Below, in pieces: positions 20,609 to 41,882 of a stretch of DNA of 46,775 nucleotides. The stretch is from Reinekea blandensis MED297 (lineage in GTDB: Bacteria; Pseudomonadota; Gammaproteobacteria; Pseudomonadales; Natronospirillaceae), in the NCBI RefSeq assembly GCF_000153185.1, contig NZ_CH724155.1, positions 29,678 through 76,452 on the forward strand, given 5' to 3'. Below the pieces are notes generated by a model. The model was not told the origin of the DNA. It saw nothing but the letters and a program-made list of their open reading frames with translations, and did not search any database. Positions within the stretch are counted from its first letter, which is position 1, and each line of letters starts with the position of its first letter. The position numbers were made by a program, and so were the translations under genes.

Positions 20609-21007
20609 TCACTTGCCGAGGTAAGGCGTGACCATCGACATAACCAACACCAGGATACAGCTCAAGCCAGCGCCACCGTAGTAGGCCCGGCCGATTGTTC
20701 TCCTGAACAGAAAAAAAATGGTAGCAACCACACTTGATATCACCAACGTCGATATCGATTCAAGAAAGACATTACCGATGCCTTTTTGCGACCCGCGATA
20801 CATCCAATACAGCCAGAGTACACACCAGGGGGTTAGCCAGCTTATTGCACTGATTCGCTTGAATTTCAGGCTGGTCGAGGTCGCCATCGGAAGCAATACT
20901 GGTAACAACAACAAGGTCAAACCCCAGAGCCAACTCAAGGCATAGAGCACATCACCATGATCAGCGAACACGAGCACTGGTGCACTCAACCAATGAACCA
21001 GTTCCAT
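20609..21007 (-). CDS. Hypothetical integral membrane protein (3-4 TM)
   Basis: Hydrophobic segments (WLWGLTLLLLPVLLPMA, WLTPWCVLWLYWMY, ISTLVISSVVATIFFLF, GLSCILVLVMSMV). Last gene on the strand downstream of the giant ATPase. Confidence 0.5.
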   Translation of the reverse strand: MELVHWLSAPVLVFADHGDVLYALSWLWGLTLLLLPVLLPMATSTSLKFKRISAISWLTPWCVLWLYWMYRGSQKGIGNVFLESISTLVISSVVATIFFLFRRTIGRAYYGGAGLSCILVLVMSMVTPYLGK

Positions 21008-21151: not shown

Positions 21152-24100
21152 CTAGCCTTTAGCATCAAAGGATCTGGACGAACCCTCCGTTGACATCTGC
21201 TTCGACAACTCACGAATGTCTTTCTGAATCGCGGTCATCCGATCCAGATTTTTCAGATCGATATTGATCTTGCCATCCATGATTTTTGCCAGTGGCACCA
21301 GGCTGTTCTCAAAGGTATCGGCCAGCGTACTCAACAACTTGTCGATACCGGGAACGGGCTGATTGACCACCTGAACCGGTGGCGCTTCGAACCGAAGATT
21401 GCCGAGCGCCTGTTCTAACGAGGCCAATGAGGACTGTAACGTACTTGCCGTTTGATTCTGACCAGCTTGCTGCAATAACCCTCCGACCTGCTGAATGGCG
21501 CCAACCATATCCATCAGTTGCGATACGACTTTCTGACCGGTGTCGGCATCGTCTCCGCCCAACGCTTTGGCACGCCGAAAGTCCGCCAGGATTTCCTGCC
21601 AGCGCTGCTCGGCGCGTTCGTCTGCGGTGCCTCGTAACTGAGCCAGCTTCATCAGGTTTTCTTCAGTGCCCTGCGTCAGCAACTGCGCCTCACCCTGATA
21701 GTGATCGTCCACCAGCCGGACCAGTTCACTGTCGGTCATGACCGAACTGATTTTTTCCGCCATCTTGTTCATGTTGCGATAGCTGCCCTGCAACTTGAAG
21801 GGTGGCTCCGTTCGGTATTTGTCGGCCGTTGCCGCAGAGGCGATGTACGCCTGATTGACCTTCAGCACAATCGACTGGATCGTCTTCATGTGTTTCAGTA
21901 CCGCCAGGATTTCCTGCAGCTCAGCCGCGTTATAGGTGTGAGACAGCTCATTGCTGTTCACCTGTCCGCGTTGAGCCATGTCGACCAATTTGTACAGATC
22001 GGCCATCTCCCGTGTCGCCAAGGGCGCCAAGACCGAGTTAGACGTCAGGGAGTTTTCCAGATAGCTGAGCGCGAAGACGTCATCTTTACCCGAGAGCACA
22101 TCGCCGAGGTTATAGATGTCTGCCCGGTTCGCCAGCATGTCCGGAATCTGGAACAGCTCGCCACTTTCCGTGTACGGGTTACCCGCCATGACCACGCTGA
22201 ATTTTTTGCCGCGCATGTCGTAGGTTTTGCTTTGCCCTTGCCAAACGCCTTCAATGCGACGCGTACCGTCACACAGGGAAATGAACTTCTGCAAAAACTC
22301 CGGATGCGTGTGCTGAATATCATCAAGATACAGCATGACATTGCTGCCCATTTCCAACGCCAGGTTCAGCTTTTCCAGCTCCTGACGGGCCGCGCTGTGG
22401 GTCGCAGCCCCTGGATCAATCGACGTGATGTCATGGCCGATGGCCGGACAATTGATCTTCATGAACACCAGTCCAAGCCGGTTCGCCACGTACTCCATCA
22501 AGGTGGTTTTACCGTAGCCCGGAGGCGAGATCATCAGCAGCAAACCCATCAGGTCGGTACGTTTGCTGTCACCCACGGTACCCATCTGTTTCGCAAGGTT
22601 GTCACCAATCAACGGCAGGTAGACGTCGCTGATCAACTTGTTACGAACAAAAGATGACAACGGCTTGGCCTTGAACTGATCGAGCCGGAACTCTGAACGG
22701 TACTGTTCCACCAATCGGTTTCGAACGCTCTGCAAGCGCTGCCAGTCGGGCAAGACCCGGGTATGGTGGTCCTGAAGGCGCGCCAGAAAATCATCCAACA
22801 CCAGATCCAGCCCACCGTCGTTTAACCGCTTGTGCTGTCCGTATAGGGGTTCAACACGCATCAGCAGATCCGCCTCCAGATCCCTCAGACTCACCCGAGG
22901 TTCACACAGCAGTAAAGCCCCCGCTTCCATCACAAAGGGCCTCAGAGCAGCGGGGTCTTCCTGTTGGTTCACATAGGCAGACAGCCAGCGCTCGACATGC
23001 GCCCATCGTTGACCGATGGACATGTCAGTCTGTTCCAGAATCTGGTTAAACGACTCGAGCGCATTAGCCTGATCAAGGTGCGACTGAAACGCCGTCAATA
23101 ACTCGCGGGCGTATTTACTGATGGCAAACGCCAACGGCTCGCGCGACAGTTCGGTCAACAAATAGTCCGCGGCTACTGCCGCTTGTGCCGGCGTCAACGG
23201 GAGCTGCTCGGCATCAGCAAACGCCGTCAGCCTTTCCGTAACAGTTGTCTGCAATGCCTTCCAGGCGGCATGACTGTTCAACAGGGAACGTTGCGATGCC
23301 GCACTGCGGGCTTCCAGCGCCCAGTGGGCTTTCTCTGCCTGATGCACCGACCAGAACAAAACCGCCATGGCCCGAACCCGTCCTTCGAAACGGAAAACAT
23401 CGGCCGCCTGATAGGTTGGTATCAACTGACACAGAATGGCCGCTGCATCGTGATCGTGAATGCCTTTTTCATAGCCTTCGCGGTATCGGGTTGCGGCATA
23501 GGGGCGAACCAACGCCAACATGTCTTCAACATCGGTCGACGCCAGTGCCAAAGCATCCAGAGACAAAGCCTCGCGATCGTAACGTGCATCTTCCAACATC
23601 TGATACGCCAGATACTCGGCCCGATACACCTCGTCGGTTTCCGACGGCAGCGCCTGCTCCCAATAGGGCTTCAGGCTGTCCAGCTCGTCATCGTTCACCG
23701 GTTCGTAATAGTCGGTACCGGTCAAATGCAAGGTTTGCACACCATCGCGAACCAATAGCGTCAGATCCAGAGTCTGGGTGTTCACACTGAACTTGTGTTT
23801 GCCCAGTCGAATCACCTGACCGTCGCCTTCGTACAGGTCGGCCTGATCTCGCAACACCCGGATCGCCTGATCTTTCAGTCCTTTCAGGCGGGCATCCAGA
23901 TCGTCGGCCCGAACTACGTCGTCAAGCTCGCGCAACTCGGAAGACAGCCCACGGATTTTCTGCACCAACGCATCTGAGGCAAAGAAGGTGTTCAGCTGAT
24001 CAACATCGCGGAAACTGTTGCAGCGACGTTGAATGCTGCTGAGTATGCGCTCAGCCGCCGAGAACAGGTTTTGCGCCCGACGTTGCAGCGCGGACTGCAG

Positions 24101-26383
24101 TGATTGCTTATGGCTTTCAAACGCTTCGTAAATTTCTTCCCGTTTACTGATGATGTCAGTCAGGAACTGATCGTAGTCGCTGAACTGGCTTTCCAGCTCT
24201 TCGAGCTGAACCAGCAGACGCGCGAGCTGTTCATCGCATTTTTCCGGCGTGTTCGCCATGCCCAGCGCGTTGTTCACGCTCTGGCCCAGCAACTTAAACC
24301 GAGCACCAAACTGCGCGACCGCTTCACTGGACCCCATGCTGTTCTTCTGCTGTTCCAGCTTCGCTTTTTGCTGATTCAACTGACCGTATACACCGGAAAT
24401 CGATTCAACGATCTGCGTTTGTACCGTCGGATCCGTCACTTCTAAGGTCGCCACCAGTTCCGACAACAGATCCAGACTGTTCGATTGCGTTTCAAGTGTT
24501 TCCAGTAAGGGCGCCAGTTCTGCCACGGTCGTGCAGTCTTTGGCGTGTGACTGTACTTGAGTAATGTCATCCCGGTACGGCTCGAACGCATTATCCTGCG
24601 ACAGGAACGCGAGCGTTCGTTGGTTCAAATCACGTTCGAGCTCTGCTAACTCTCCGTCCAATGCATCGAGCCGCTCGGTTTGCATGTAGCGGTAGTCACG
24701 CAACGTCAGCAAATGACCGCGTTGCTCACGAATGGACTGCAACCCGTCAACAAAGGGTTGCGGGCTGTTCCAGGTATCCGGTTTTAAATCAAACTTCAGT
24801 TTTTCAAGTGCACGCTCTGCATCCTTCAGCGCCTGCTCGGACTGCTGCCGGATCGCGGTAACTTTCTCAAACTCATCCAACACCTGCTCGGAGGTTTCAC
24901 CGATCTGTCGGATGATTGGGGTCAGTGCTGCCAGCTCATCAGATTCCAGCCAGAAGTAGCTGTCGAAAAGCCCGGCACAGTGTTTTGAGAGTTGATTAAA
25001 GTGCTCCGCACTGACATCGGTTGTACGCACGGCTCGCACCACGCTGTACAGATCGGAGACGCCTCGAACGAGCTCCGCGTTGCCAATCCGACCAAAGAAG
25101 GTTGACGGTGCCGGTTGCTGACTGACGTATTCATCCGACTGATAAGGCGTTTTCCAGATCTGTAGCGGATGCACCCGCGTCGGTTCCGCCTCGGCGTAAA
25201 ACAGCGCCAGCCGACCGTCATCAAACAACCCGTAACCATGACCGAACAACGGGTTCTGCATGGTTTTGCTGATCAGGTTATAGCCGAACAGACCGACCTT
25301 CCCGGCTTCGGGTTCGTAAAACACATACAGAACGTCTTCACCATTCGGCGAGCGCACCACCCGCTTAAAGCGCATGCCTACCGTATCGTCATCGAAAGAC
25401 TTCAGATCGCCGGTACTGAGGTAATACCCGCCGGGAAACACGATGCCGTGATCTTCAGGTAACTGCACACAGGACTGACCGATGAGATCAATTCGCACCA
25501 CACGCTCGAGTGTTTTATTGAATACCAGATAACGGGTGGTCTCTTCCCGATACGGCAATATTCGCAGAAGAATCAGTTGGCCAAGATCCGCATAGGCCAG
25601 CTGGCAATCATCCAGTGTCTGGCTTTCCACCTCAACCGGTTCACTGTAAATACCCAGTCCGCTGTCGGTGTTGTTCTCAACCTTGATAGTCAAATCACCG
25701 CGCTGGCAGTCGACAAACAGTGTATCGAGTACGCTGTAATGCGGATGCCGGCCTTCGACGATGTCGTCGCGACCGCACTCGGTCCATTCAAAGTCAAACC
25801 GCGGCGGCAAGGCAATGTCCCGCTCGCCCCGATTGTCGATGTACTCGGTAACATTACCCTGCGCATCCAGAGACCAGCGAAACACGCGCTGATCACTTAA
25901 CCGGTCACCAATCTGAAACGCCGCCAACAGTTTATTGTCTTTCACCGTCAGCTGAATCAGGTGCGTCTGTTTGTAATAGGCGTAGAGTTCTTCAAACTCG
26001 GTCACGAAGCGCTGATCACTCAGGAAGGTACCGCTGAGGGCAACCTCTTCCACCTCAAACTGGCCGTCCCGTTCAACGGGTCGGAACAGTGCAAACACAT
26101 CGTTGACGCGTGTGGTTTTACGCAGCCCGATGTTGACGTTGTAACCCAGCAGAATCCACTCACCGACGCGAACCAGGTCGCGTGCAATGCTGTTGTTTTC
26201 CGTGCGCAGCCGAACGCGACCGGCCACTTCCATGTCAGTACTGCCGAACTCAGCCTGACGGGCATCATTGAGTTGTTGTGTCTGTTGCTCAAGCGCCCGG
26301 CCCTGTTCCATCAACCGGTTGTGCAGGACCTCGTAGGCTCCGCCTTGCGCGACGGCCTGATCGATGTCGTGAGAATCGCTCAT
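21152..26383 (-). CDS. Giant (1743 aa) protein with a C-terminal AAA_5 (MoxR/McrB/dynein-like) ATPase domain, function unknown
   Basis: One uninterrupted 5.2-kb ORF. Walker A ISPPGYGKTTLMEY near aa 1285, Walker B MLYLDDIQ, sensor-1-like VVMAGNP and the arginine-containing LANRADIY. The N-terminal 450 aa is a mixed beta-rich region. About 800 aa of predicted helical/coiled-coil sequence sits in the middle, and an about 300-aa helical tail follows the ATPase. Confidence 0.8.
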   Translation of the reverse strand: MSDSHDIDQAVAQGGAYEVLHNRLMEQGRALEQQTQQLNDARQAEFGSTDMEVAGRVRLRTENNSIARDLVRVGEWILLGYNVNIGLRKTTRVNDVFALFRPVERDGQFEVEEVALSGTFLSDQRFVTEFEELYAYYKQTHLIQLTVKDNKLLAAFQIGDRLSDQRVFRWSLDAQGNVTEYIDNRGERDIALPPRFDFEWTECGRDDIVEGRHPHYSVLDTLFVDCQRGDLTIKVENNTDSGLGIYSEPVEVESQTLDDCQLAYADLGQLILLRILPYREETTRYLVFNKTLERVVRIDLIGQSCVQLPEDHGIVFPGGYYLSTGDLKSFDDDTVGMRFKRVVRSPNGEDVLYVFYEPEAGKVGLFGYNLISKTMQNPLFGHGYGLFDDGRLALFYAEAEPTRVHPLQIWKTPYQSDEYVSQQPAPSTFFGRIGNAELVRGVSDLYSVVRAVRTTDVSAEHFNQLSKHCAGLFDSYFWLESDELAALTPIIRQIGETSEQVLDEFEKVTAIRQQSEQALKDAERALEKLKFDLKPDTWNSPQPFVDGLQSIREQRGHLLTLRDYRYMQTERLDALDGELAELERDLNQRTLAFLSQDNAFEPYRDDITQVQSHAKDCTTVAELAPLLETLETQSNSLDLLSELVATLEVTDPTVQTQIVESISGVYGQLNQQKAKLEQQKNSMGSSEAVAQFGARFKLLGQSVNNALGMANTPEKCDEQLARLLVQLEELESQFSDYDQFLTDIISKREEIYEAFESHKQSLQSALQRRAQNLFSAAERILSSIQRRCNSFRDVDQLNTFFASDALVQKIRGLSSELRELDDVVRADDLDARLKGLKDQAIRVLRDQADLYEGDGQVIRLGKHKFSVNTQTLDLTLLVRDGVQTLHLTGTDYYEPVNDDELDSLKPYWEQALPSETDEVYRAEYLAYQMLEDARYDREALSLDALALASTDVEDMLALVRPYAATRYREGYEKGIHDHDAAAILCQLIPTYQAADVFRFEGRVRAMAVLFWSVHQAEKAHWALEARSAASQRSLLNSHAAWKALQTTVTERLTAFADAEQLPLTPAQAAVAADYLLTELSREPLAFAISKYARELLTAFQSHLDQANALESFNQILEQTDMSIGQRWAHVERWLSAYVNQQEDPAALRPFVMEAGALLLCEPRVSLRDLEADLLMRVEPLYGQHKRLNDGGLDLVLDDFLARLQDHHTRVLPDWQRLQSVRNRLVEQYRSEFRLDQFKAKPLSSFVRNKLISDVYLPLIGDNLAKQMGTVGDSKRTDLMGLLLMISPPGYGKTTLMEYVANRLGLVFMKINCPAIGHDITSIDPGAATHSAARQELEKLNLALEMGSNVMLYLDDIQHTHPEFLQKFISLCDGTRRIEGVWQGQSKTYDMRGKKFSVVMAGNPYTESGELFQIPDMLANRADIYNLGDVLSGKDDVFALSYLENSLTSNSVLAPLATREMADLYKLVDMAQRGQVNSNELSHTYNAAELQEILAVLKHMKTIQSIVLKVNQAYIASAATADKYRTEPPFKLQGSYRNMNKMAEKISSVMTDSELVRLVDDHYQGEAQLLTQGTEENLMKLAQLRGTADERAEQRWQEILADFRRAKALGGDDADTGQKVVSQLMDMVGAIQQVGGLLQQAGQNQTASTLQSSLASLEQALGNLRFEAPPVQVVNQPVPGIDKLLSTLADTFENSLVPLAKIMDGKINIDLKNLDRMTAIQKDIRELSKQMSTEGSSRSFDAKG

Positions 26384-26490
26384 CTGTTTTCCTTGCAGAA
26401 CGACAGCGACCTGCCTGACGACAGGCGCTGTTTGAATCCGTGAAACCCAGCTCGGTTCAAATGATAAGCCGGGTGTCTGTCAGCCGGGAC

Positions 26491-28482
26491 TTAGTTAACC
26501 TTGTCGGCTGGGGCTGGTGTCTTACCGGCCGTCATGAAACGCTGCATGATCTGTTGCAACATCGGACTTTCGGTTAACAGACCATCGATGGCTTTGCCCA
26601 TGCCCATGCCGGAGGCCATCTTGTTGAAGTAGTCGCCATCGCCACCGATGATATCGATGTTGGAGTTCTCGAAGGCCGAGGCCATGATGCTGGCCTGATC
26701 TTTGGAGATCTCTTTGTTGGCGTCCAGTTTCGCCTGAACTTCTGTCAGTGCGGCTTCAAGGCGCATCTTGAACTCTTCAAACTCACGCGCTTCGGTGCTC
26801 ATGTTGTTCATGGCATTGAACTTCGCCGTCAGACCATCGGCCTCGGCATTGGCACGCTCACGGATAACCGCTGAATCGGCCAGACCTTTTTCACGGCTCG
26901 CTTCGGCTTCCGCCAGGCCTTTCTGACGGCTGGCTTCTGCTTCCGCCAGACCCTGCTCACGCAGCCCGTTGGCTTCGGCATTGAGGCGCTCTTCCAGTAC
27001 TTTGGCCTGCATGAGCCCTTCTTTCTCGCGGGCAATGGCCTGGGCTTCGATGACACGCGCTTCGGCCTGACCTTCTTTCTCCAGCGCCTCGGCTTTCGCC
27101 GCCTGCACCTTGGCGGCCGCCAAACCAGAGGCCGCGTGCGTAGCCTGGTCGCCCTCGGCTTTCTTCTTTGCTGCTTCGGCTTGCTTGCTGGACGCTTCCA
27201 GTTCGGCCTGAGCCATCAGCTGAATTTCTTTGGCTTTGTGAACCGCCTGCTGTTCTTCGGCTTCGGCCGCTTTCACCTGCTTGATCTTTTCTTCTTCGGA
27301 GGTCGCTTCCGCTTCCATGATGCGAACCTGTTTCAGACGATCCGCCTCAGAAATTTCCCGCACCTCTTTAATGCGTTCTTCTTCTTCGGCGACCTTCTTC
27401 TCAACAGCGATGCGTTCAGACACGGTGTTGGCAATGATCTTACGCTCTTCTTCCAGGGCCTTTTCTTTGTCGATCCGTTGCAGTTCAACTTCACGTTCGC
27501 GGTTCACCGCTTCCAGTTCGCGCGCCTTAACGACCTTCTCTTCTTCGATCGCCAGGGCTCGTTCCTTGGCTTTATTGGCAATCTCAACCTGACGGTTTTT
27601 GTTGACATCCTGTACTGCAATTTCTTCTTCGGTACGGATGCGGGCTTCTTCCGACTTCAGTCGTTCTTCCTGCTGAACCTTCAGTGTTTCGGCTTCTTCC
27701 CGGGCTTTCAGCGTTTCCACTTCGCGCTTCTGACGGGCCACCGCATCGGCTTCCTGGCGTTCCAGTGCCAATAGGGCTTCACGCGTTTCAACATTCTTCT
27801 TGTTGATCGCCAGCGCCTGATCTTTTTCCAGACGGTTCGTCTCAATGCTTTGTGTGGCCGTCACTTCCGTGATGCGACGGATACCCTCCGAATCGAGAAT
27901 GTTGAACGGGTCGAGTTCTGACTTTGGTGTCTGTTCCAGGTAATCGATGGCAACGTCTTCGAGGACATAGCCGTTCAGATCCTGCCCGATCACTTCGATG
28001 ATCTGTTCACGGAACTGAATCCGGTTTTCGAACAGTTCCAGGAAGTTCATTTTTTTACCGACGGTCTTCAATGCTTCAGAGAACTTGGCATTGAACAGCT
28101 CGTTAACGGCTTCGCGATCAGACGCTCGATCTACGCCGATGGCCTTCGCCACCTTGAGCACGTCGTCCTGGGTTTCATTGACGCGCAAATAGAAAGCCAC
28201 GTTGATATCGGCCCGCAGATTATCTTTACAGATCAACCCGTCCTTGGCCCGCCGATCCAGCTCCAGGGTGATCAGCGAGATCTTCATGACTTCCATTTTG
28301 TGAACAACCGGCAACACAAACCCACCGGTGAAAAACACCTTCGGTTTGGCGGACATGTCGTTCACGATCATCGCATAACCCTGCGGGATCTTTTTATAGA
28401 ACGCATTAAACAGCAGGGCTAAAAACAGCAGTACGCCGAAGATAACACCGCCCCAGATTAAGATGGGCATGATCAGTTCCAT
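26491..28482 (-). CDS. Flotillin-like SPFH/Band-7 protein (YqiK-like) with an extended Glu/Ala/Lys-rich coiled coil
   Basis: N-terminal TM (ILIWGGVIFGVLLFLALLF), an SPFH domain, then about 350 aa of EA-rich coiled coil with internal 11-aa repeats (GLAEAEASRQKGLAEAEASREKGLAD). AAGGAG RBS 8 nt upstream. Confidence 0.85.
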   Translation of the reverse strand: MELIMPILIWGGVIFGVLLFLALLFNAFYKKIPQGYAMIVNDMSAKPKVFFTGGFVLPVVHKMEVMKISLITLELDRRAKDGLICKDNLRADINVAFYLRVNETQDDVLKVAKAIGVDRASDREAVNELFNAKFSEALKTVGKKMNFLELFENRIQFREQIIEVIGQDLNGYVLEDVAIDYLEQTPKSELDPFNILDSEGIRRITEVTATQSIETNRLEKDQALAINKKNVETREALLALERQEADAVARQKREVETLKAREEAETLKVQQEERLKSEEARIRTEEEIAVQDVNKNRQVEIANKAKERALAIEEEKVVKARELEAVNREREVELQRIDKEKALEEERKIIANTVSERIAVEKKVAEEEERIKEVREISEADRLKQVRIMEAEATSEEEKIKQVKAAEAEEQQAVHKAKEIQLMAQAELEASSKQAEAAKKKAEGDQATHAASGLAAAKVQAAKAEALEKEGQAEARVIEAQAIAREKEGLMQAKVLEERLNAEANGLREQGLAEAEASRQKGLAEAEASREKGLADSAVIRERANAEADGLTAKFNAMNNMSTEAREFEEFKMRLEAALTEVQAKLDANKEISKDQASIMASAFENSNIDIIGGDGDYFNKMASGMGMGKAIDGLLTESPMLQQIMQRFMTAGKTPAPADKVN
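26881..26979 (-). repeat. 3 x 33-bp imperfect in-frame tandem repeat inside the flotillin coiled-coil region
   Basis: Units cagacctttttcacggctcgcttcggcttccgc, caggcctttctgacggctggcttctgcttccgc and cagaccctgctcacgcagcccgttggcttcggc. They encode LAEAEASRxKG repeats. Confidence 0.6.
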
Positions 28483-28530: not shown

Positions 28531-29157
28531 TTAGTGTGTTTGTGCGAGCTGAAAACAGCCCTGCTCGGGAATGAATCGCACGATGGTGACCTCATCACCG
28601 GATTTATAACCGAGGTGCGCCGGTGCCCGAACCTGAATGATCAGACTGGCGCCTTCGTAGTTAAAATGGGCCTCGCCGAAGGTTTCATCGACGCGGCTTG
28701 AACGGATGGTGCAGTTTTTTCCAATGGCATAGCGACCAAGAACCTGTCGTTGTGCTTTGCCGAAGAGTTTGCGTAAGGGACGGATGGTGATCGCGGTGCA
28801 GGGAATGGCCACCACAAACGCCCCTAGCGAAATGACGGTACCAATCAGCCAACTCATCAGCCCCGCCTCGGACGGCATCACCAGGTAAGCGGCAAAGTAA
28901 CTGGCTAACCAGGCGTAAAGCGCCAGCAACGTCAGGATCACCGGAACCGGGACGCCTGTCAGACCAAAGGTTGAGAGCCAGCCGGCAACACCGGGCAGCT
29001 CCGCATCGGCATCGACATCGAGGTCGACATCCACGCCCGGTATGTCAAAGTCGGCCATGCCAAGCATGGCGATGACCAGGAACAGCAGGCAGATGAGTAA
29101 AGCCGTGGTCCAGATCGCCGTCGGGAACGACAGGCTGATGTGTAAAAAAGTGTCCAT
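28531..29157 (-). CDS. YqiJ/NfeD-like membrane protein (flotillin partner, C-terminal OB-fold)
   Basis: Multi-TM N-terminal half and a C-terminal soluble beta domain, the same architecture as E. coli YqiJ. Immediately upstream of the flotillin gene, as in the yqiJK pair. Confidence 0.7.
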   Translation of the reverse strand: MDTFLHISLSFPTAIWTTALLICLLFLVIAMLGMADFDIPGVDVDLDVDADAELPGVAGWLSTFGLTGVPVPVILTLLALYAWLASYFAAYLVMPSEAGLMSWLIGTVISLGAFVVAIPCTAITIRPLRKLFGKAQRQVLGRYAIGKNCTIRSSRVDETFGEAHFNYEGASLIIQVRAPAHLGYKSGDEVTIVRFIPEQGCFQLAQTH

Positions 29158-29158
29158 G

Positions 29159-29488
29159 TTACTCCTCAGCAGACGAGGTTTGACTCCATTGCAGCAACTC
29201 CTGCGCTGCGCGTTCTTTAATCGCTAAGTGATCCGCCGGATCAATGCCATAGCGTTCTGCCAGCAAAGCCATTTCATCGGCGGACAGGCTGATGGTCAGA
29301 CGCGGCCGAACCGGTTTTTTCACCGGTAACCCGAGAATACTGCGAATCTGATCCGACGGTGTGCGATCGGCTTTAATCGCTGATGTCTTGATCCGGCGCT
29401 GTGCGTCGGTCGAGATATCAAAGGCGATCTGCACCGCTTTTATCGCGCGTCGTTCGTCCGGCCAGTAGTCCTCGGGTTGCTTTGCCAT
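29159..29488 (-). CDS. Hypothetical protein
   Basis: 109-aa ORF tightly packed (2-bp gap) before the YqiJ-like gene. No recognised domain. Confidence 0.4.
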   Translation of the reverse strand: MAKQPEDYWPDERRAIKAVQIAFDISTDAQRRIKTSAIKADRTPSDQIRSILGLPVKKPVRPRLTISLSADEMALLAERYGIDPADHLAIKERAAQELLQWSQTSSAEE

Positions 29489-29495
29489 GGCGGCC

Positions 29496-29735
29496 TCAGG
29501 CGTTATTCAGATAAGACTGCAGTTCGGTAATCTTACGGCCCAGTTCGGCGTCGATTTCTTCCGGGCGGACCCGATCCAGAATGTTGCCGAGAACGCGTCG
29601 TTCGTTGTCATCAATCTCACCATCACGCAGGGCAATGTTGATCAGTTCGTCAAACTCAGCGGCGTCCAGTTTACCGTCGTCGGTAAACGCCTGAATGGAG
29701 CGAAACGACAGTTCCAGATAATCACGGTTTTCCAT
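29496..29735 (-). CDS. Hypothetical small protein, TerB-like motifs
   Basis: 79 aa, acidic, with two xDGxxDxxExxxL-type motifs (TDDGKLDAAEFDELI and RDGEIDDNERRVL) reminiscent of the TerB/DjlA-N family. Confidence 0.4.
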   Translation of the reverse strand: MENRDYLELSFRSIQAFTDDGKLDAAEFDELINIALRDGEIDDNERRVLGNILDRVRPEEIDAELGRKITELQSYLNNA

Positions 29736-30426
29736 GGTTGGTTTCCTTTTTCAGTTGGGCCAGTATGGCGTCCGGACTGTCGTCATCCCAGACGATGCCG
29801 GCTTGTTGGTATTGCAGTTTGGTGTCCTGTGACTGCTGCAGGTCGGTCTCGGCCTGCCATTGATCCTGAGCGCGCTGCTGCCGTGCGCGTATGCGCTCGA
29901 CTGAGGCGCGTGCATTGGTCAGTGATTCGGTCCCCTCGGCCAGATGATCACGCAAAGCGAGAGTGGTCTGATGCATGGTTTGGCTGGTCGTCAGCATGTC
30001 TCGTTCCCGGAGCAGTTCGCCGAGATCGCTCTGCGCGCGATTCAACTGATAACGGGCACGGGCGGTCTGCGCGGAAACTTCACTCAACTCTGTTTGCAGC
30101 GATTGCATTTGGTGACGACATTCTGATATCTGCTGCGCATGTACCGCCGCCTGAGTTTCCTGACCGGCCTGCAGAGCCGAACGGGCCTGTGTTTGCAAGT
30201 GCTGCTGTTCACGTTCCAACTTGTCGAGTCGTTGTACCAGGCTCTGTTCGGTCGACTCCATGGTTCGAAACGCGGTTTCCGCCTGCGACAGAATCGATTG
30301 AGATCGGGCAATGGAAGCTTCCAGTCGGTGATCCTGTTGCTGATCGACCGTCTCGGGGACATCTCCAACCGCGCTCGATATTTCGACAACGCTGCGTTTT
30401 AACAGTGAGATCAGTTTACTGAGCAT
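29722..30426 (-). CDS. PspA/IM30 (ESCRT-III-like) family protein, YjfJ-like paralog
   Basis: Predicted all-helical coiled coil of the IM30 size class. N-terminus MLSKLISLLKRSVVEISSAV parallels the PspA MGIFSR..I.. amphipathic start. GAGGAGG RBS 8 nt upstream of the chosen ATG. It follows a YjfI-like gene as in the E. coli yjfIJ pair. Confidence 0.65.
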   Translation of the reverse strand: MLSKLISLLKRSVVEISSAVGDVPETVDQQQDHRLEASIARSQSILSQAETAFRTMESTEQSLVQRLDKLEREQQHLQTQARSALQAGQETQAAVHAQQISECRHQMQSLQTELSEVSAQTARARYQLNRAQSDLGELLRERDMLTTSQTMHQTTLALRDHLAEGTESLTNARASVERIRARQQRAQDQWQAETDLQQSQDTKLQYQQAGIVWDDDSPDAILAQLKKETNHGKP

Positions 30427-30439
30427 GGGTCCGTCCTCC

Positions 30440-30847
30440 TCAGCGCAGATAGGGTTCAAAAGCCAGTAATGCCTGTTGAGCATTTTCAGCCAGCGTTACC
30501 AGTTCGGTTGCAATCAGATGGGTATCGGAATCCAAGGCCAGGGCTCCGAAAGCGACGTAATAGTTTTCAACCAGCGCAAACGCACTTAATGGCATCGGCA
30601 CGTTCAGTTCAAGCAGCAGAGCGTTCAGTTGGGTTTCGCGGTCATCACGAATCTCAGCGCGATGTGCCAGGTAGGCAATGCATAAAATCTGGGTATCGGT
30701 ATGGGTGACAAAGATCGGAGGGTCATTCAAATGCTCCACTTCCACCCGCAGGACCGAATGATCGCCCTGAATCGGCATGCAATGGAAACGATGTCCCTCA
30801 AACTGACTGCTGTCGAGGAATGCGTTGAGCTGTTGCAATCGGGTCAT
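30440..30847 (-). CDS. YjfI-like protein (DUF2170)
   Basis: The C-terminal VENYYVAFGALALDSDTHLIATELVTLAENAQQALLAFE closely parallels the E. coli YjfI C-terminus (EEYYIVFGALSLKSSLEDILLEITSLVDNALDLAEI). Start chosen at MTRLQ with GGGAGG 5 nt upstream. Its stop overlaps the RBS of the next gene. Confidence 0.65.
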   Translation of the reverse strand: MTRLQQLNAFLDSSQFEGHRFHCMPIQGDHSVLRVEVEHLNDPPIFVTHTDTQILCIAYLAHRAEIRDDRETQLNALLLELNVPMPLSAFALVENYYVAFGALALDSDTHLIATELVTLAENAQQALLAFEPYLR

Positions 30848-30874
30848 GCCGCCTCCCTGGCTGAGCATCAGATA

Positions 30875-30953
30875 TTGACATAATATGTCGGTCATCCTGA
30901 CCGAGCGGGACATATTATGTCAAACAGTTACGAACGAAAGTGACTTTTGTCAC
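30875..30953. promoter_or_regulatory. Cluster of perfect palindromes in the divergent promoter region: a 15-bp inverted repeat with a nested 5-bp IR, plus a second 5-bp IR
   Basis: TTGACATAATATGTC (30875-30889) and GACATATTATGTCAA (30909-30923) are exact reverse complements. The 19-bp spacer contains GGTCAtccTGACC. GTGACttttGTCAC follows at 30940-30953. The arm also reads as a -35-like TTGACA fused to TAATAT. Confidence 0.55.
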
Positions 30954-33900
30954 AGCTTTTGAGTGTGTGGTTTCCATTTGGCGCAACCACCAGAAAGCCG
31001 TTAAGATCTGCCCTCCATGCTTCCAAGGATCGGGCCGTGTCCACTTCCGCCATTGCTGATGTCATCCGCTACTACCGGGATTGCTTCCAGGCGTCGTTTT
31101 TCTCTTCCGCCGGGTACGGCTTATTTGATCAGAAAGATCTGGTGCCTTTGGCCATTGCGCACCTGGATGACGGCATTCCCTGGTCGGAGCAATGGCAGCA
31201 GCAATATGTGATCGATGCCGATCAGGTCCATCTGATGCGCATCGACGGCATCACCTTGATTCCGGAACCCAACAGCGCAGCCACGACCGATGCCCACTAT
31301 CGCCCGTCCCGCGTCGCGCAGATGAACGCCTGGGCCGATAACCCCCAGGCCGAGCCGGACTGGGACGAGGAGTGGCAACAACAGTTACAGGCCGATACCG
31401 AACCGGCCCCTCAATTAACGGTGGCCTCACTGCCGAGCCTGTCGAACCTGGCCGACTGGTTGCAAGAGCAGGCCGAGCAATCCACGGAACGCCGGCAACT
31501 GGCCGTCAGTGTGTTGTTTTTGATGCCCAAAAACTTTCGTGCGACCGCGCACAAAGCCGATTTCGTTGCCTATCTCGACCGGCTGACCCACCAGCATCAC
31601 AACCCCGACAGTCTGCTGTGGCAAAGTCTGCTGCGACAGTCTGTTATGCCGGTTACGACCACACCGACGCCCGAACTGCCCTTTTTATCTCAGCGCCAGA
31701 ACCAGGCGTTGCACAGCGCCCGTACGCGTCGGTTTTCGCTGATCCAGGGTCCGCCCGGGACCGGCAAAAGCCGGCTACTCGCCACGTTGGCGGCGCAACT
31801 GGCCAGTGACAACAAAGCCGTCTTGCTGACCAGCCACAGCGACCATGCCCTGACCGTACTGCGGGAAAAACTGGTGCAGGATATCGGTCTTGATGAGCGC
31901 TGGCTGGTTCATATCGGACCGGGACGTCGGACCCGAAAGCTGGCCGAACACCTGTCGCGGCTACTGACCCGAAGTGACGAACCTGCGGCGCCCACTCGCG
32001 CGATGCCCGGCGCGTGGGCGGACTTCCATCGCAGCGAGACACGCCTGCGCCGGCAACTGGCTCGTGAACCCCAACTGACAGAGAACTGGCTAACCGGCGA
32101 GCTGACCGGTTCGCAATCATTGAAACGCCGATGGTGGTCACTGTGGCACCGCGACCATCATCACCTCAACCGCACCATCGATACCCTGCATGCCTCGGTC
32201 GATCAACTCGCCCGAGCGTTCGGTGCCGATCTTAACCGACAACTGCACCAGGCTTTTCAGTTTTCGCGGACTAAGAACAGTGACGCCTGGTCCACCTTGG
32301 CACAGCGCCTGAAACGCGGCAGTCTTCGCGAAAGCGTTGGCCATCTGAATCAGCGCCGGGACGATGTGTTTACACCCACCGATGGGCTGAAAATCTGGTT
32401 AATCAAACTGGATGATCTGCCCGAACAGGCTTTTGGCCTGTTCGACACCGTCATCATCGACGAAGCGACGCAGGTCAATATGGCGGAAGCCATTCCGGCA
32501 CTGGCGCTGAGCCGTCATGCCGTGGTGGCCGGCGACCCCCGACAACTTCGACATTACAGCTTTTTGAGCCGCGAACAGGAGGCCCGCATTGCCGGCAGCC
32601 TGAATCTGAACCCGGACGATGTCGTCAGCTTCCGCGACACCAGCCTGCTCGACTACAGCGAACAGTACCTGACAGGTATTTCAGCCTTTGATGCCTGCCA
32701 CCAGCTCGACGAACACTATCGTTCCGTGCCGCCATTGATGGATTTCAACAGCCGACAGTTTTATCAGGGCGATGTCCAGGTGCTGACCGGGCTGAATCAG
32801 GTCAACAGTCTCAAGCTGCACCTGAACTGGGTGATGACCGAAGGACAACGGGTTAACAAAATCAATCAGGCTGAGGCTTCCGTGCTTATCGAGCATCTGA
32901 CGCAGCTGATCAACCGCGAACGGAACCAACCGGTTAGCAAAAAAACGACTCTCGGGGTGCTTTCATTTTTCCGCGATCAGACGGAGCACCTGAAACAACA
33001 GATTCTGCAAACCTGTTCACTCAGTGACATTCGCGCGCATCAGGTTAAGGTGGGTACGCCCTTTTCGTTTCAGGGTGAAGAGCGCGACCACATGCTGATT
33101 TCCTGTGCTATCGACGATCACAGCCACCCCGGCACCTGGGGGTATCTGAATCAACCGGATGTATTCAATGTGGCGACATCCCGTGCCAGACGCCAACAGA
33201 CGCTGTTTCTGTCGGCCAGTCCAGCCGAACTGCCGGTTAACTCGGTGCTACGCAGCTATTACGATTTCAGCCGCACACCACCAACCTCGGCAACCGCACC
33301 GGAACAGAGCCTGCCCTGGTTACGACACCTGTTACCCGCACTTCAGGACGCGGGCTTCCGTACCCTGGCACAGCAATACATCGCCGACATCCCCATCGAT
33401 TTGATTCTGGAAGCCGATGGCCGGACGCTGGCTGTCGACCTGATCGGTTTTCCTTCCGAGGTCGGTCAGGCGATTCATCTGGACCGTTACCTGGCCCTGT
33501 TCCGCGCGGGTATTCCCTTGTTTCCGTTCAGTGCCCGGGAATGGGTCTTAAACCCCAATGGTTTGATCGAAGACCTGCTTCGCTGGGCCGGACAATACGA
33601 TCATCGACTATCGATGGAGTCCCCCAAGGAAACAACACCCGGCTCTGACTTCATTCCTGCCAAACTCTGGCAAGGGCTTTCTCGATGCCAGCAAAGTCCG
33701 GACGTGCAACAGGAGTTCACCGATGCTGAGTTGCAACTCACTGACCAGATTCACCGGCTTGAAACCCTGTTGAGCAGCCTCTTTCAACCCGGCTCAGTGA
33801 CGTATCTACGATATCAATCGGCTATTACCTCAGTGGCAGGTCAGACACTGGAAAACCTGGAAACCTACCGGTTGCTGTTCAGTCAGGTCTGGGAACAGGG

Positions 33901-34084
33901 CAGTCAGGATCATGCTTACTGGAATGGCTTGGTAGCCCCCATTAAACAACGGCATTTGGATTACCTGTCGGCGCTGCAGCGGTTGCAAACCTCGTTGACC
34001 GAAACCATCGCTCAGCAGAAGCCCGATACCTTTCAGCTTAACGATCTGGAAGCCTTAACGGAGCGGCTGAAGCATTATCAGTAA
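30947..34084 (+). CDS. Superfamily-1 helicase, Upf1/DNA2/NAM7-like (AAA_11/AAA_12)
   Basis: Walker A LIQGPPGTGKSRLLATL, Walker B VIIDEATQV, motifs VVAGDPRQL and FNVATSRAR. About 300 aa N-terminal and about 330 aa C-terminal regions are unassigned. The ORF-track start is a TTG at 30947 with a poor RBS. The in-frame GTG at 31037 preceded by AAGGA (7-nt spacing) is a plausible true start. Confidence 0.8.
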   Translation: MSQLLSVWFPFGATTRKPLRSALHASKDRAVSTSAIADVIRYYRDCFQASFFSSAGYGLFDQKDLVPLAIAHLDDGIPWSEQWQQQYVIDADQVHLMRIDGITLIPEPNSAATTDAHYRPSRVAQMNAWADNPQAEPDWDEEWQQQLQADTEPAPQLTVASLPSLSNLADWLQEQAEQSTERRQLAVSVLFLMPKNFRATAHKADFVAYLDRLTHQHHNPDSLLWQSLLRQSVMPVTTTPTPELPFLSQRQNQALHSARTRRFSLIQGPPGTGKSRLLATLAAQLASDNKAVLLTSHSDHALTVLREKLVQDIGLDERWLVHIGPGRRTRKLAEHLSRLLTRSDEPAAPTRAMPGAWADFHRSETRLRRQLAREPQLTENWLTGELTGSQSLKRRWWSLWHRDHHHLNRTIDTLHASVDQLARAFGADLNRQLHQAFQFSRTKNSDAWSTLAQRLKRGSLRESVGHLNQRRDDVFTPTDGLKIWLIKLDDLPEQAFGLFDTVIIDEATQVNMAEAIPALALSRHAVVAGDPRQLRHYSFLSREQEARIAGSLNLNPDDVVSFRDTSLLDYSEQYLTGISAFDACHQLDEHYRSVPPLMDFNSRQFYQGDVQVLTGLNQVNSLKLHLNWVMTEGQRVNKINQAEASVLIEHLTQLINRERNQPVSKKTTLGVLSFFRDQTEHLKQQILQTCSLSDIRAHQVKVGTPFSFQGEERDHMLISCAIDDHSHPGTWGYLNQPDVFNVATSRARRQQTLFLSASPAELPVNSVLRSYYDFSRTPPTSATAPEQSLPWLRHLLPALQDAGFRTLAQQYIADIPIDLILEADGRTLAVDLIGFPSEVGQAIHLDRYLALFRAGIPLFPFSAREWVLNPNGLIEDLLRWAGQYDHRLSMESPKETTPGSDFIPAKLWQGLSRCQQSPDVQQEFTDAELQLTDQIHRLETLLSSLFQPGSVTYLRYQSAITSVAGQTLENLETYRLLFSQVWEQGSQDHAYWNGLVAPIKQRHLDYLSALQRLQTSLTETIAQQKPDTFQLNDLEALTERLKHYQ

Positions 34085-37347: not shown

Positions 37348-37564
37348 TGTTTTTCGTTCCTTCTGGTCAATCGGCCATGGGAAGGGCATGATCTTGCACG
37401 CGGACGGTAACCGTCCAGTGCCAAAAGCCGTAAACCGGTCAGGACCTTTCCTCTGAGTCCTGATTGCCGGGGCCTGATAACACTAATTCAACCCTACCGG
37501 TCTGGCGCGGATTCATTACACTACGCCATCACGACCCAGTTCAACCGGCAAAGAAGGAAATCTC

Positions 37565-41630: not shown

Positions 41631-41639
41631 ATCGCCTCC

Positions 41640-41882
41640 TTACTCCCGAGTCGCATCACGGCGCCAGCGCGGGTTCCGTTCATCGAGTATGGACTCCAGT
41701 GCTTCCATCCGATCGGCCAGAGAGTCCAAGGTTCTGAGCAAATCGTCCAGGGTCGCCTGATCACTGTCACTCAGACCCCGACTGGTTTTGCTTTTATGTT
41801 TGTAGTGCATGACCAGCCAGATCGGCATGACCACGACCATAAACAAAATGGTCGGCACAAATAGAAATTCGAAAAATTGCAT
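41640..41882 (-). CDS. pspB: Phage shock protein B
   Basis: 80 aa. N-terminal TM then LSDSDQATLDDLLRTLDSLADRMEALESIL, matching the PspB leucine-zipper-like region. Confidence 0.8.
   Translation of the reverse strand: MQFFEFLFVPTILFMVVVMPIWLVMHYKHKSKTSRGLSDSDQATLDDLLRTLDSLADRMEALESILDERNPRWRRDATRE

Follow-up and report, generated by a model that had tools for sequence, protein, structure and literature searches.

The giant gene and its operon

The window, i.e. the whole stretch of 46,775 nucleotides from Reinekea blandensis MED297 that was analysed, carries on its minus strand (30913 to 21152) a DUF2170 gene, a PspA-like gene, a short NfeD-type gene, a flotillin gene and the gene of a giant ATPase, an order that matches the bac-type operon described earlier by Ravi et al. 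2024 (PMC11237479). The ATPase gene (21152..26383; minus strand, as are all operon features given below) is an ORF of 1743 aa that begins with ATG in the ORF list and its translation, with an AAGGA ribosome-binding site 6–7 nt 5′ of the start; at exactly these coordinates it is the largest ORF in the window, as the first-pass annotation had stated, the runner-up having 1045 aa. The product is 100% identical to an NCBI Reinekea blandensis protein named “DNA repair ATPase”, homologues are colinear with it over 97–100% of its length among the 120 matches listed, and a TM scan finds no TM-like segment. The ATPase is thus real, intact and soluble, and the ORF is not a pseudogene.

The protein belongs to the DUF3686/“DNA repair ATPase” family. 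Pfam finds DUF3686 (aa 31–477, E=2.9e-191), DUF7902 (aa 598–681, E=9e-27) and AAA_5 in it, and the identical set occurs in every homologue among the 120 + 120 matches listed; the family architecture of DUF3686, DUF7902 and a single AAA module in a total of ~1600–1900 aa is therefore matched by the window protein. A search with the N-terminal domain returned at least 689 clusters at 50% identity, with DUF3686 always at the N-terminus of full-length matches, and the family comprises thousands of sequences from Proteobacteria, Myxococcota, Actinobacteria, Bacteroidota, Planctomycetota and Deinococcus. The ATPase is a member of a widespread, biochemically uncharacterised family; the earlier view of its function as uncharacterised holds for its biochemistry, which is unpublished, but not for the family, which is in Pfam, nor for the operon type, which has already been published (PMC11237479).

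Next to the ATPase gene lies the gene of a YqiK-type flotillin (SPFH) of 663 aa (26491..28482), whose N-terminus carries a single TM segment and which has a long coiled coil rich in Glu and Ala and a conserved C-terminal segment IDIVGGDG...GKA.DG, followed by that of a YqiJ-like (short NfeD-type) membrane protein of 208 aa (28531..29157), with three TM-like segments and a C-terminal beta domain. The Pfam NfeD model matched none of 18 YqiJ-like members, and the YqiJ-like protein and most flotillin homologues escaped direct Pfam recognition, so the two partners had to be identified through profile–profile comparison with the E. coli proteins YqiJ and YqiK: hhalign aligned the flotillin with YqiK at a probability of 99.9 (E=7e-33) and the YqiJ-like protein with YqiJ at a probability of 93.7 (E=1.8e-7), and the flotillin also matches NCBIfam FloT (E=5e-9). 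PDB profile searches with these two proteins found nothing.

The remaining operon genes encode a small soluble protein of 109 aa (29159..29488), an accessory member with no Pfam or NCBIfam match; a PspA/IM30-family protein (YjfJ/BacB-like; 29722..30483; Pfam PspA_IM30, E=6.7e-13) as an accessory module, whose ORF has a maximum of 253 aa and whose true start is likely Met20 at 30426, right behind the DUF2170 stop; and, as the first gene, a DUF2170 protein (YjfI/BacA-like; 30440..30913; Pfam DUF2170, E=5.6e-30) that matches NCBIfam BacA weakly (43 bits). DUF2170 proteins have a CesT/Tir-type chaperone fold (PMC10948618, PMC11237479). The flotillin-like and PspA-like neighbours noticed in the first pass are thus real, as the YqiK, FloT and PspA_IM30 matches show. 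Directly 3′ of the ATPase gene, a further gene for a polytopic membrane protein of 132 aa (20609..21007; TM scan) is possibly co-transcribed with it. Pattern scans of the operon for promoters, terminators and sigma-54 sites gave nothing better than chance; the strict consensus TGGC-N8-TGC, the one form tried, was absent from the minus-strand sequence upstream of 30913 and matched elsewhere in the window as often as expected by chance.

A single AAA+ motor on a large scaffold

The domain architecture is based on AlphaFold models at pLDDT 88–90 and on fold searches. The N-terminal part (aa 1–500; 24884..26383) is predicted to contain an N-terminal helix (16–46), an all-beta propeller-like domain (52–411) and helices 417–499, which pack against the N-helix into a bundle in the model. 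The first 450 residues had been described as beta-rich, in agreement with the strands modelled at aa 52–411 (pLDDT 90), and as unassignable, a point now superseded by the DUF3686 match. A predicted helical/coiled-coil stalk with heptad periodicity follows (aa 501–850; 23834..24883), which is poor in Pro/Gly and includes DUF7902; hydrophobic residues recur with a strong 3.5-residue periodicity at aa ~440–800, the heptad coiled coil amounts to ~350 aa, and beyond DUF7902 the stalk gives just weak coiled-coil-type matches (LmuB, spectrin). The family-specific mid domain of ~390 aa (aa 851–1240; 22664..23833) is modelled confidently and as largely helical at aa ~855–1240, with a small beta-sheet (aa 857–895) ahead of the helical part, and carries the motif EGYEKGIHDHDAA, in which H976 and D979 are invariant. 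The helical, coiled-coil-like stretch expected upstream of the motor is borne out by the stalk periodicity and the helical mid domain.

The AAA+ alpha/beta core (aa 1241–1430; 22094..22663) is followed by a lid and C-terminal helical region (aa 1431–1600; 21584..22093; delimited by the AF2 model and conservation), and both the core and the helical lid of the AAA+ fold are present. This region holds the invariant loop EPPFKLQGSYRNMNKM, with the invariant residues R1524 and R1536; the peptide YRNMNKM is one of the two most conserved of the family. A low-complexity Q/A/G/S linker and an amphipathic tail complete the chain (aa 1601–1743; 21155..21583; alignment consensus), the tail showing a 3.6-residue periodicity at aa 1681–1720 and the region as a whole being kept within Gammaproteobacteria only, with 6–38% identity beyond close relatives. 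Of the 1743 residues, ~1200 form scaffold outside the motor. Pfam, the AlphaFold models and the fold searches agree with the proposed plan of a big scaffold plus one AAA_5-type motor; the motor had been called C-terminal, but ~340 residues (lid, helical region, linker and tail) still follow it.

Pfam places AAA_5 at aa 1282–1405, with 30.5 bits when the whole protein is scanned and 33.3 bits when the region is excised (gathering cut-off 22), spanning profile positions 2–126 of 139; AAA_3, the profile of MoxR proper, reaches E=0.11 only. The Walker A, Walker B and sensor motifs quoted in the first-pass annotation are all present: SPPGYGKTT at aa 1286–1294, which satisfies GxxxxGK[ST]; LYLDDIQ at aa 1351–1357, within a Walker B region VMLYLDD (aa 1349–1355) on a predicted strand at 1349–1354; and VVMAGNP at aa 1397–1403, with sensor-1 N1402 after the strand 1395–1400. 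In the AF2 model (pLDDT 88), a pre-sensor-1 beta-hairpin (strands aa 1376–1381 and 1384–1389) lies between alpha-3 and beta-4, and a candidate arginine finger, R1420, closes helix alpha-4 (1415–1420) just ahead of strand 1422–1424; the check for such a finger that had been advised thus yields an invariant candidate. K1292 and T1293 do not vary in the alignments of 98 sequences, nor in 10 sequences drawn from diverse phyla, and together with D1354, D1355, N1402, R1420, R1375, R1524 and R1536 they are invariant across the phyla sampled (Gammaproteobacteria, Actinobacteria, Bacteroidota, Planctomycetota, Myxococcota and one Clostridia MAG), between which the AAA core retains 68–84% identity and other domains 20–60%. 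As judged from sequence, the nucleotide-binding and hydrolysis site is complete and extremely conserved, and the motor domain belongs to the MoxR/dynein-related (AAA_5) class, nearest in likeness to CbbQ and NorQ.

The motor departs from its class in several features. Walker B is an invariant DD (D1354-D1355) and not hhhhDE, with Asp in place of the catalytic Glu; the motif is in its expected position but chemically unusual, which means that ATP could be turned over slowly or in a switch-like manner. The helix-2 insert beta-hairpin is absent in the model, where beta-2 (1306–1311) and alpha-2 (1330–1345) are joined by a short helix plus an ordered loop (pLDDT >90), and an aromatic-hydrophobic-Gly pore motif was not found in the loop following beta-2; nothing in these features therefore implies that the ATPase threads its substrate. 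MoxR ATPases usually act with a VWA/MIDAS partner, and Pfam finds no VWA domain in the ATPase or any operon neighbour.

Conserved neighbours and known systems

Our neighbourhood survey covered 80 loci, plus one locus from the most divergent branch found and one from Sphingobacterium (Bacteroidota). The flotillin gene lies directly upstream of the ATPase gene on the same strand in 77 of the 80 loci, the other three being contig ends; the YqiJ-like gene occurs in 72, and each missing case is at a contig end; the order YqiJ-like, flotillin, ATPase also holds in the two additional loci, and across at least six phyla the ATPase gene comes directly after yqiJ-like and yqiK-like genes. The PspA-like/DUF2170 dyad is present in 39 of the 80 loci, the two genes always together, and also in Sphingobacterium, and a homologue of the 109-aa gene was found in 12, each time beside the dyad. 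Genomic coupling to both a flotillin and a PspA-like protein had been claimed; the former is near-constant, but the latter holds in just the 39 loci, and the obligate partners of the ATPase are the YqiJ-like/YqiK-like (NfeD-type/flotillin) pair, not the PspA/DUF2170 dyad. Two further neighbours were rejected as system members: a homologue of the 132-aa downstream membrane gene stands beside the ATPase gene in none of the 80 loci, and a superfamily-1 helicase gene, divergent from the ATPase gene in the window, adjoins it in one.

The operon shares with P. aeruginosa bacABCDEF (PA3732–PA3727) the order DUF2170 (BacA), PspA-like (BacB), YqiJ-like (BacC), flotillin PaFlo3 (BacD) and BacE; the bac order is exact in seven Pseudomonas-group loci, with the giant ATPase right after the flotillin. 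Compared with bac, the window has one gene more, that of the 109-aa protein, which separates the PspA-like gene from the YqiJ-like one, and no homologue of bacF, and its 132-aa downstream gene is unrelated to the downstream genes conserved in other loci. From synteny, from congeneric loci (52–55% identity) and from the listing of PA3728 as “ATPase” (PMC8190622), we infer that the ATPase is the orthologue of BacE (PA14_16190/PA3728).

In P. aeruginosa, bacA–F are co-transcribed and all rise 6–13-fold in a bacA mutant (PMC10948618), PA3728–PA3732 are co-upregulated in a stress proteome (PMC13637947), and the operon influences virulence as well as the formation of biofilms and the production of rhamnolipids. 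Mutants of the flotillin paFlo3 have marginal phenotypes only (PMC13086221), and a pa3728 transposon mutant grew normally on the carbon sources tested. No paper turned up in literature searches for “DUF3686” or for flotillin combined with “DNA repair ATPase”.

Searches of the PDB, whether started from the protein alone or from a family profile built on 98 sequences, gave P-loop-level matches alone (best E=0.003–0.02; NVL, RuvB, Rix7), which indicates at the sequence level that the ATPase has no solved relative in the PDB; homology of the whole protein to a characterised family with an unrelated role, which would have spoken against the first-pass reading, was not found in sequence, profile or fold searches. 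CbbQ (of the Rubisco activase CbbQO) and NorQ (of NorQD, in nitric-oxide reductase maturation) share only 14–17% identity with the motor and are stand-alone proteins of ~260 aa that need a VWA/MIDAS adaptor (CbbO, NorD), whereas the ATPase locus has no VWA gene and the ATPase itself has a ~1240-residue N-terminal scaffold fused to the motor, a DD Walker B and no predicted helix-2 hairpin. Dynein heavy chain and midasin (Rea1/Mdn1) contain six AAA modules per chain; the ATPase has one and would have to oligomerise, and its stalk and tip domain are N-terminal, with a fold unrelated to those of dynein and midasin.

To our knowledge, no bacterial SPFH-family scaffold other than the HflK/HflC cage, which encloses FtsH, has a well-characterised AAA+ partner. 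The two systems are alike in joining an AAA+ machine to an SPFH scaffold and in their membrane-stress and quality-control physiology. FtsH, however, is a membrane-anchored classical-clade AAA protease inside a periplasm-facing cage, whereas the ATPase is soluble, lacks a protease domain and comes from another AAA+ clade, and its paired proteins are a YqiK-type flotillin and a YqiJ-like protein.

The analogy to Vps4/ESCRT-III and PspF/PspA drawn in the first pass survives as a concept, namely an AAA+ protein that has a helical polymer on the membrane as its substrate or its regulator, and a PspA-family gene is indeed in the operon, but the domains that define Vps4 and PspF are missing: the ATPase has neither an N-terminal MIT domain nor closest structural similarity to classical-clade ATPases, and Pfam finds neither a Sigma54_activat AAA domain nor a C-terminal HTH in the 1743-aa protein. 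A genuine Sigma54_activat protein is encoded elsewhere in the window (42991–44028, E=2e-62). E. coli yqiJ–yqiK are homologues of the YqiJ-like and flotillin genes of the window, but the E. coli K-12 operon stops after yqiK and has no ATPase gene; hence the flotillin pair can function without the ATPase. The ATPase-linked flotillins are ~100 aa longer than E. coli YqiK.

Proposed function and rival explanations

On balance, we favour by a modest degree the view that the ATPase is an active cytoplasmic ring-forming AAA_5-class ATPase and the dedicated energy-consuming partner of a YqiJ/YqiK-type NfeD–flotillin assembly. Its constant position after the flotillin gene makes it most likely a scaffold remodeler rather than a DNA repair enzyme, and a remodeler role on the flotillin/YqiJ assembly in an envelope-stress operon is the most likely function. 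Gene adjacency and shared expression do not, in themselves, reveal which substrate the ATPase acts on. SPFH/NfeD proteins build cytoplasm-facing cages, according to work cited in PMC13086221. In our proposed mechanism, the ATPase would oligomerise via its AAA module, probably as a hexamer; its coiled-coil arms, tipped by the beta-propeller-like domain, would attach to the cytoplasmic cage of flotillin and YqiJ, or to proteins that it retains; two conserved elements facing the pore, NCPxxGHxxTSxDP and the pre-sensor-1 hairpin, would grip a segment of the partner while ATP hydrolysis pulls; and pulling would build, open or take apart the flotillin scaffold under envelope stress. Functional parallels would be Vps4 on ESCRT-III, NSF on SNAREs and midasin stripping factors from pre-ribosomes. 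PspA, where present, may be a co-effector in membrane repair and not the primary substrate.

The presence of PspA_IM30 and its chaperone-like DUF2170 partner in the operon here, in the 39 loci and in Sphingobacterium, with the PspA-like gene two to three genes upstream of the ATPase gene, also allows the reading that the ATPase is the Vps4 counterpart for the ESCRT-III homologue PspA, with a PspA-like polymer as substrate and the flotillin as a mere membrane platform. The bac genes are co-regulated (PMC10948618), and reviews know no Vps4-like ATPase for bacterial PspA (PMC7619361). We regard this reading as unlikely.

A nucleotide-gated scaffold or tether, in which ATP binding, with little turnover owing to the DD Walker B, controls the oligomerisation of an extended coiled-coil molecule organising or anchoring flotillin domains, would fit the invariant Asp-Asp without catalytic Glu, the large share of non-motor residues and the missing canonical aromatic pore loop. 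However, neither sensor-1 Asn nor the arginine finger, which serve hydrolysis and not binding, varies between phyla; the conservation of the AAA core is more typical of working motors; and a DD Walker B, known in ATP-hydrolysing AAA+ proteins such as DnaA, is compatible with hydrolysis. We consider a tether about as doubtful as a PspA-directed role.

A role of the yqiJ–flotillin–ATPase cluster as a system of defence against phages or of abortive infection is quite improbable. Large ATPases beside membrane proteins are common in defence islands, and PA3728–PA3732 are among 17 genes upregulated in every phage-infected P. aeruginosa sample (PMC12041424), but such induction is expected of a membrane-stress operon. 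None of the eight operon proteins has a meaningful PADLOC match, the matches being at coiled-coil or P-loop level alone (LmuB, 1e-6; IetA and TRIP13, E>0.003) and none for the flotillin, YqiJ-like and small proteins; Pfam finds no nuclease, protease or toxin effector domain; the ATPase occurs in none of 50,697 phage records and in 13 of 72,556 plasmid records, each on a replicon of at least 389 kb; and the cluster keeps its synteny and its single copy from phylum to phylum and, in the window, lies among housekeeping genes.

Least probable of all, and hardly tenable, is a DNA repair enzyme, e.g. an SbcC/Rad50/SMC-like coiled-coil ATPase acting on DNA, as the NCBI and UniRef name, the Pfam description of DUF3686 (“ATPase involved in DNA repair”), a weak match of the coiled coil to the SMC-like LmuB model (E=1e-6) and the adjoining helicase gene might suggest: we found no paper that ties the family to DNA repair, Pfam and NCBIfam find no SMC_N, AAA_23, SbcC, Rad50, nuclease, helicase or DNA-binding domain, the sole P-loop is in the AAA+ module and the N-terminus is a beta domain, so that there is no split ABC head, the LmuB match is restricted to the coiled coil, and the helicase is a neighbour in a single surveyed locus as against invariant membrane-protein neighbours. 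The name was probably propagated from coiled-coil similarity to the COG “ATPase involved in DNA repair” (SbcC).

Membrane organisation and repair depend centrally on SPFH/flotillin scaffolds and PspA/ESCRT-III polymers, and beyond FtsH–HflKC we know of no bacterial energy-consuming factor that assembles or recycles SPFH or PspA polymers. The conservation of the motor and its tie to one flotillin subtype across the sampled phyla make the ATPase family a testable candidate for this missing activity, and the widespread database name “DNA repair ATPase” is probably wrong. The effects of the P. aeruginosa operon on biofilm, rhamnolipids and virulence, together with its phage response, give the mechanism applied interest. 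More tentatively, in the ATPase we may have the first example of a non-proteolytic, ATP-driven machine dedicated to the assembly and disassembly of flotillin (SPFH) cages: a MoxR-class ring with six coiled-coil arms that would dock on the cytoplasmic YqiK/YqiJ dome and open or recycle it during envelope stress. If so, it would supply bacterial membrane-scaffold dynamics with a Vps4/NSF-like energy input that is currently thought to be missing.

An intact giant ATPase of the DUF3686 family

The ATPase gene (21152..26383, minus strand) is an ATG-initiated frame of 1743 codons, the window's longest, as the first-pass annotation had it (the runner-up encodes 1045 aa), with an AAGGA ribosome-binding site 6–7 nt 5′ of the start codon. 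Its product is 100% identical to the NCBI entry "DNA repair ATPase [Reinekea blandensis]" and colinear with 120 listed homologues (1740–1814 aa) across 97–100% of its length; therefore the gene is not the pseudogene that the annotation had considered possible. Pfam recognizes DUF3686 (aa 31–477, E = 2.9e-191), DUF7902 (aa 598–681, E = 9e-27) and AAA_5 (aa 1282–1405; 33.3 bits for the region scanned alone with the gathering cut-off at 22). Searching exhaustively with the N-terminal domain returned 689 clusters at 50% identity (E ≤ 1e-3), and full-length family proteins (1590–2036 aa) all carry this domain at the N-terminus. The family was found in none of 50,697 phage records; of 72,556 "plasmid" records just 13 had it, every one a replicon of at least 389 kb. 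The window gene is the Reinekea orthologue in a catalogued family known from computational description, not a new kind of system.

Two AlphaFold2 models (aa 1–500, mean pLDDT 90.2; aa 840–1640, mean pLDDT 88.0) were built from 98-sequence alignments mixing gammaproteobacterial and actinobacterial homologues. The first predicts a long helix (aa 16–46), an all-beta domain (aa 52–411) and further helices (aa 417–499); the 450-aa N-terminal domain described earlier is hence beta-rich as claimed but not unassignable, being DUF3686. Residues ~440–800, where Pro and Gly are nearly absent, have a strong hydrophobic periodicity of 3.5 residues and solely weak, coiled-coil-type matches, and we read them from sequence as a coiled-coil or helical stalk, in keeping with the annotation. 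The second model predicts a confidently folded mid domain (aa ~855–1240; a five-stranded sheet, then helices) and an AAA+ core followed by a helical lid; the last ~140 residues, a low-complexity linker and amphipathic tail, are kept among Gammaproteobacteria only. The mid domain contains EGYEKGIHDHDAA (window 23430–23470, aa ~970–981), conserved from Proteobacteria to Bacteroidota with H976 and D979 invariant; no fold or family match explains this motif, a possible site for binding a metal or ligand. A TM scan found no TM-like segment in the ATPase: it is soluble.

A conserved MoxR-class AAA+ site

Comparison of the motor gave the highest score for CbbQ, a MoxR-type Rubisco activase (14.8; 236 of 267 residues aligned), followed by NorQ (14.1), dynein (13.4), midasin (13.0), ClpA (12.1), McrB (10.7) and Vps4 (9.8); Foldseek likewise placed CbbQ and NorQ on top (target-normalised TM-scores 0.60 and 0.57), with weak E-values (~1e-4). 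The motor is MoxR/dynein-like, neither Vps4- nor PspF-like, and the earlier analogy to those two does not hold for it.

All three motifs named by the first-pass annotation are present in the translation: Walker A (SPPGYGKTT, aa 1286–1294), modelled after strand 1281–1283; Walker B (LYLDDIQ, aa 1351–1357), at the end of strand 1349–1354; and VVMAGNP (aa 1397–1403), with N1402 at the sensor-1 position. A two-stranded pre-sensor-1 hairpin (aa 1376–1389) is predicted ahead of beta-4 (aa 1395–1400), and no helix-2 beta-hairpin is predicted in the motor model. R1420, at the end of helix 1415–1420 and directly ahead of strand 1422–1424, occupies the canonical arginine-finger position in the model, and so supplies a candidate for the finger that the annotation had proposed to look for. 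The loop that follows beta-2 (NCPAIGHDITSIDP) shows strong conservation, but without the aromatic pore motif found in threading unfoldases.

K1292, T1293, D1354, D1355, N1402, R1420, R1375, R1524 and R1536 do not vary among ten sequences from Gammaproteobacteria, Actinobacteria, Bacteroidota, Planctomycetota, Myxococcota and a Clostridia MAG; identity across those phyla is 68–84% in the AAA core vs. 20–60% in each remaining domain. Walker B invariantly carries Asp-Asp instead of Asp-Glu, which we treat as atypical without being disabling, since DnaA, with an identical variant (LIDDIQ), hydrolyses ATP. The Asp-Asp pair could point to a nucleotide-gated scaffold that is no motor at all; however, sensor-1 and the candidate arginine finger are invariant, and we consider this reading improbable. 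The ATPase thus carries an intact, very strongly conserved MoxR-class AAA+ site.

Linkage to flotillin and a YqiJ-like protein

The operon and the gene just after it, all on the minus strand, encode a DUF2170 protein (30913–30440, Pfam E = 5.6e-30); a PspA_IM30 protein (ORF 30483–29722, likely start 30426, Pfam E = 6.7e-13); a 109-aa soluble protein without a Pfam or NCBIfam family (29488–29159); a 208-aa protein with a beta C-domain and three TM-like segments (29157–28531); a 663-aa protein with a Glu/Ala-rich coiled coil and one N-terminal TM (28482–26491); the ATPase (26383–21152); and a 132-aa polytopic membrane protein (21007–20609), the membrane segments being from the TM scan. Pfam alone barely recognizes the 663-aa and 208-aa families, which profile-profile comparison identifies as a YqiK-type flotillin (probability 99.9, E = 7e-33) and a YqiJ-like protein (probability 93.7, E = 1.8e-7). 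The Glu/Ala/Lys-rich coiled coil of the flotillin contains near-duplicate segments, e.g. GLAEAEASRQKGLAEAEASREKGLAD; AT skew is strongly negative at 26001–28000 (−0.285; elsewhere ~0), coincident with the flotillin gene, and is a coding-sequence composition effect, not a separate feature.

Pattern scanning, with one genome taken per species, confirmed at least 562 homologues, and all ORFs of the best 80 loci, which take in Gamma-, Beta- and Zetaproteobacteria, Myxococcota, an actinobacterium and a Clostridia MAG, were searched with the window's neighbours and clustered all against all. The flotillin gene lies directly upstream of the ATPase gene and co-oriented in 77 of the 80 loci (the exceptions L010, L035 and L059 begin at a contig end), and a YqiJ-like gene precedes it in 72 (the others are contig ends); both a DUF2170 and a PspA-like gene are present in 39. 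Homologues of the 109-aa gene occur in 12 loci, invariably with this dyad and at times on the opposite strand; the downstream 132-aa gene recurs in none of the 80. Among divergent branches (N-domain identity 29–38%), the gene order is CesT_Tir–PspA–DUF4177–YqiJ-like–flotillin–ATPase in Sphingobacterium deserti, where the DUF4177 gene takes the place of the 109-aa gene, and YqiJ-like–flotillin–ATPase–TelA in the most distant full-length branch; HMMs confirmed flotillin (E = 8e-219 and 5e-113) and the YqiJ-like protein (E = 6e-27 and 1e-18) in both. These counts and gene orders define a core module of YqiJ-like protein, flotillin and ATPase, with the PspA dyad as accessory. Genetic linkage therefore connects the ATPase with a YqiJ-like protein and with a YqiK flotillin that is anchored in the membrane; of the coupling proposed in the first pass, flotillin stands, whereas PspA is not obligate, the obligate partner being the flotillin/YqiJ pair.

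A Vps4-like partnership with PspA is attractive because bacteria have no known Vps4-like ATPase (PMC7619361), but the linkage to PspA is facultative, the ATPase has no MIT domain and its AAA clade is different; we regard such a partnership as unlikely.

Genes on the downstream side of the ATPase in distant lineages, TelA (co-oriented, metagenomic locus L082, 12001–13221) and a TPM_phosphatase-domain gene (opposite strand, Sphingobacterium locus L083, 11874–13391), are envelope-stress related too. A 1040-aa family variant (locus L084, 8001–11123, protein P0430; also P0431) has DUF3686 and DUF7902 and lacks an AAA module; its gene sits among Por_Secre_tail (T9SS-type) genes of an 8.9-Mb genome, away from any flotillin or YqiJ-like gene, and the protein is either a copy that has decayed or a scaffold form lacking the motor. 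In the window, a canonical phage-shock locus (41139–44028) lies 12 kb away: pspA (41971–42648, minus; PspA_IM30 E = 2e-42) and pspC (41139–41630, minus) diverge from a gene for a PspF-like sigma-54 activator without receiver domain (42991–44028, plus; Sigma54_activat E = 2e-62, HTH_8), so that two PspA paralogues lie close by, only one of PspF type. Between operon and psp locus, a 741-aa protein (35164–37389, minus) joins a GIDE (E3-ligase-like membrane) domain to a C-terminal LemA domain, making this stretch rich in membrane-stress-type genes. A 1045-aa superfamily-1 helicase (AAA_11/AAA_12; 30947–34084, plus) diverges from the DUF2170 gene, and taking the longest ORFs leaves hardly any gap between the two; this adjacency looks incidental, because among the 80 loci just one has a homologue close to the ATPase. 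Elsewhere, MORN repeats are fused with a legumain-like Peptidase_C13 domain (8694–10361, minus), an unusual combination in bacteria, and a 185-aa Clp-protease-fold protein with a weak NfeD1b_N match (45124–45681, minus) could be ClpP or a fragment of a long-NfeD-type protease.

A candidate role in flotillin dynamics

Judged from synteny and Pseudomonas-group loci at 52–55% identity, the window gene is probably orthologous to P. aeruginosa BacE/PA3728, listed as "ATPase" (PMC8190622). Mace et al. 2008 defined the biofilm-associated cluster PA3729–PA3732 (PMC2587700); Wallart et al. 2024 extended it to the six-gene operon bacABCDEF by RT-PCR over every junction and found BacB–F 6–13-fold up in a bacA mutant (PMC10948618). 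PA3728–PA3732 are induced jointly by phage infection (PMC12041424) and co-upregulated in a stress proteome (PMC13637947); according to a 2026 study, PA14_16180 (BacD) is PaFlo3, an SPFH protein, and PA14_16160 (BacC) is one of the short NfeD proteins (PMC13086221). The putative orthologue bacE is part of a co-expressed envelope-stress operon; a transposon insertion in pa3728 leaves growth normal on the carbon sources tested. Families of ~397 aa (14 loci) and ~199 aa (11 loci) follow the ATPase, the latter possibly BacF. Exactly this operon type was described by Ravi et al. 2024, abbreviated flotillin–YqiJ(–ATPase) operons being more widespread (PMC11237479). In the literature we found no biochemical or structural data on the ATPase, no mention of DUF3686 and no link of "DNA repair ATPase" with flotillin.

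MoxR-class rings (e.g. CbbQ, NorQ) each act on one particular partner complex, which they remodel by taking hold of a partner element inside the ring. SPFH/NfeD proteins form large cage- or dome-like membrane oligomers, e.g. HflK/C, QmcA–YbbJ and a flotillin 44-mer, according to work cited in PMC13086221 and in a Nat Commun 2026 abstract. We propose that the ATPase would oligomerise via its AAA module, that its coiled-coil arm and propeller-like tip may reach the flotillin/YqiJ assembly or clients held there, and that ATP would be spent to assemble, open or recycle this scaffold in envelope stress, with PspA as a putative optional co-effector. That the ATPase physically works with the flotillin/YqiJ complex is likely; the overall reading is somewhat favoured; disassembly or opening of the cage as its specific action is a tentative suggestion. 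The remodeler of a membrane-associated polymer envisaged in the first pass is in this sense a reasonable idea, without PspA as obligate partner.

Induction of the operon by phage might suggest an anti-phage defence system, but there are no PADLOC matches and no effector domain, the phage and true plasmid records searched lack the family, and its synteny is deep, which makes defence very improbable. A role in DNA repair has the name alone in its favour and no DNA-related domain in the protein, and is scarcely credible; the label probably arose because the coiled coil resembles SMC-like proteins.

In conclusion, the family's database name is probably wrong, and the ATPase is a well-defined, widely conserved candidate energy source for bacterial flotillin dynamics.
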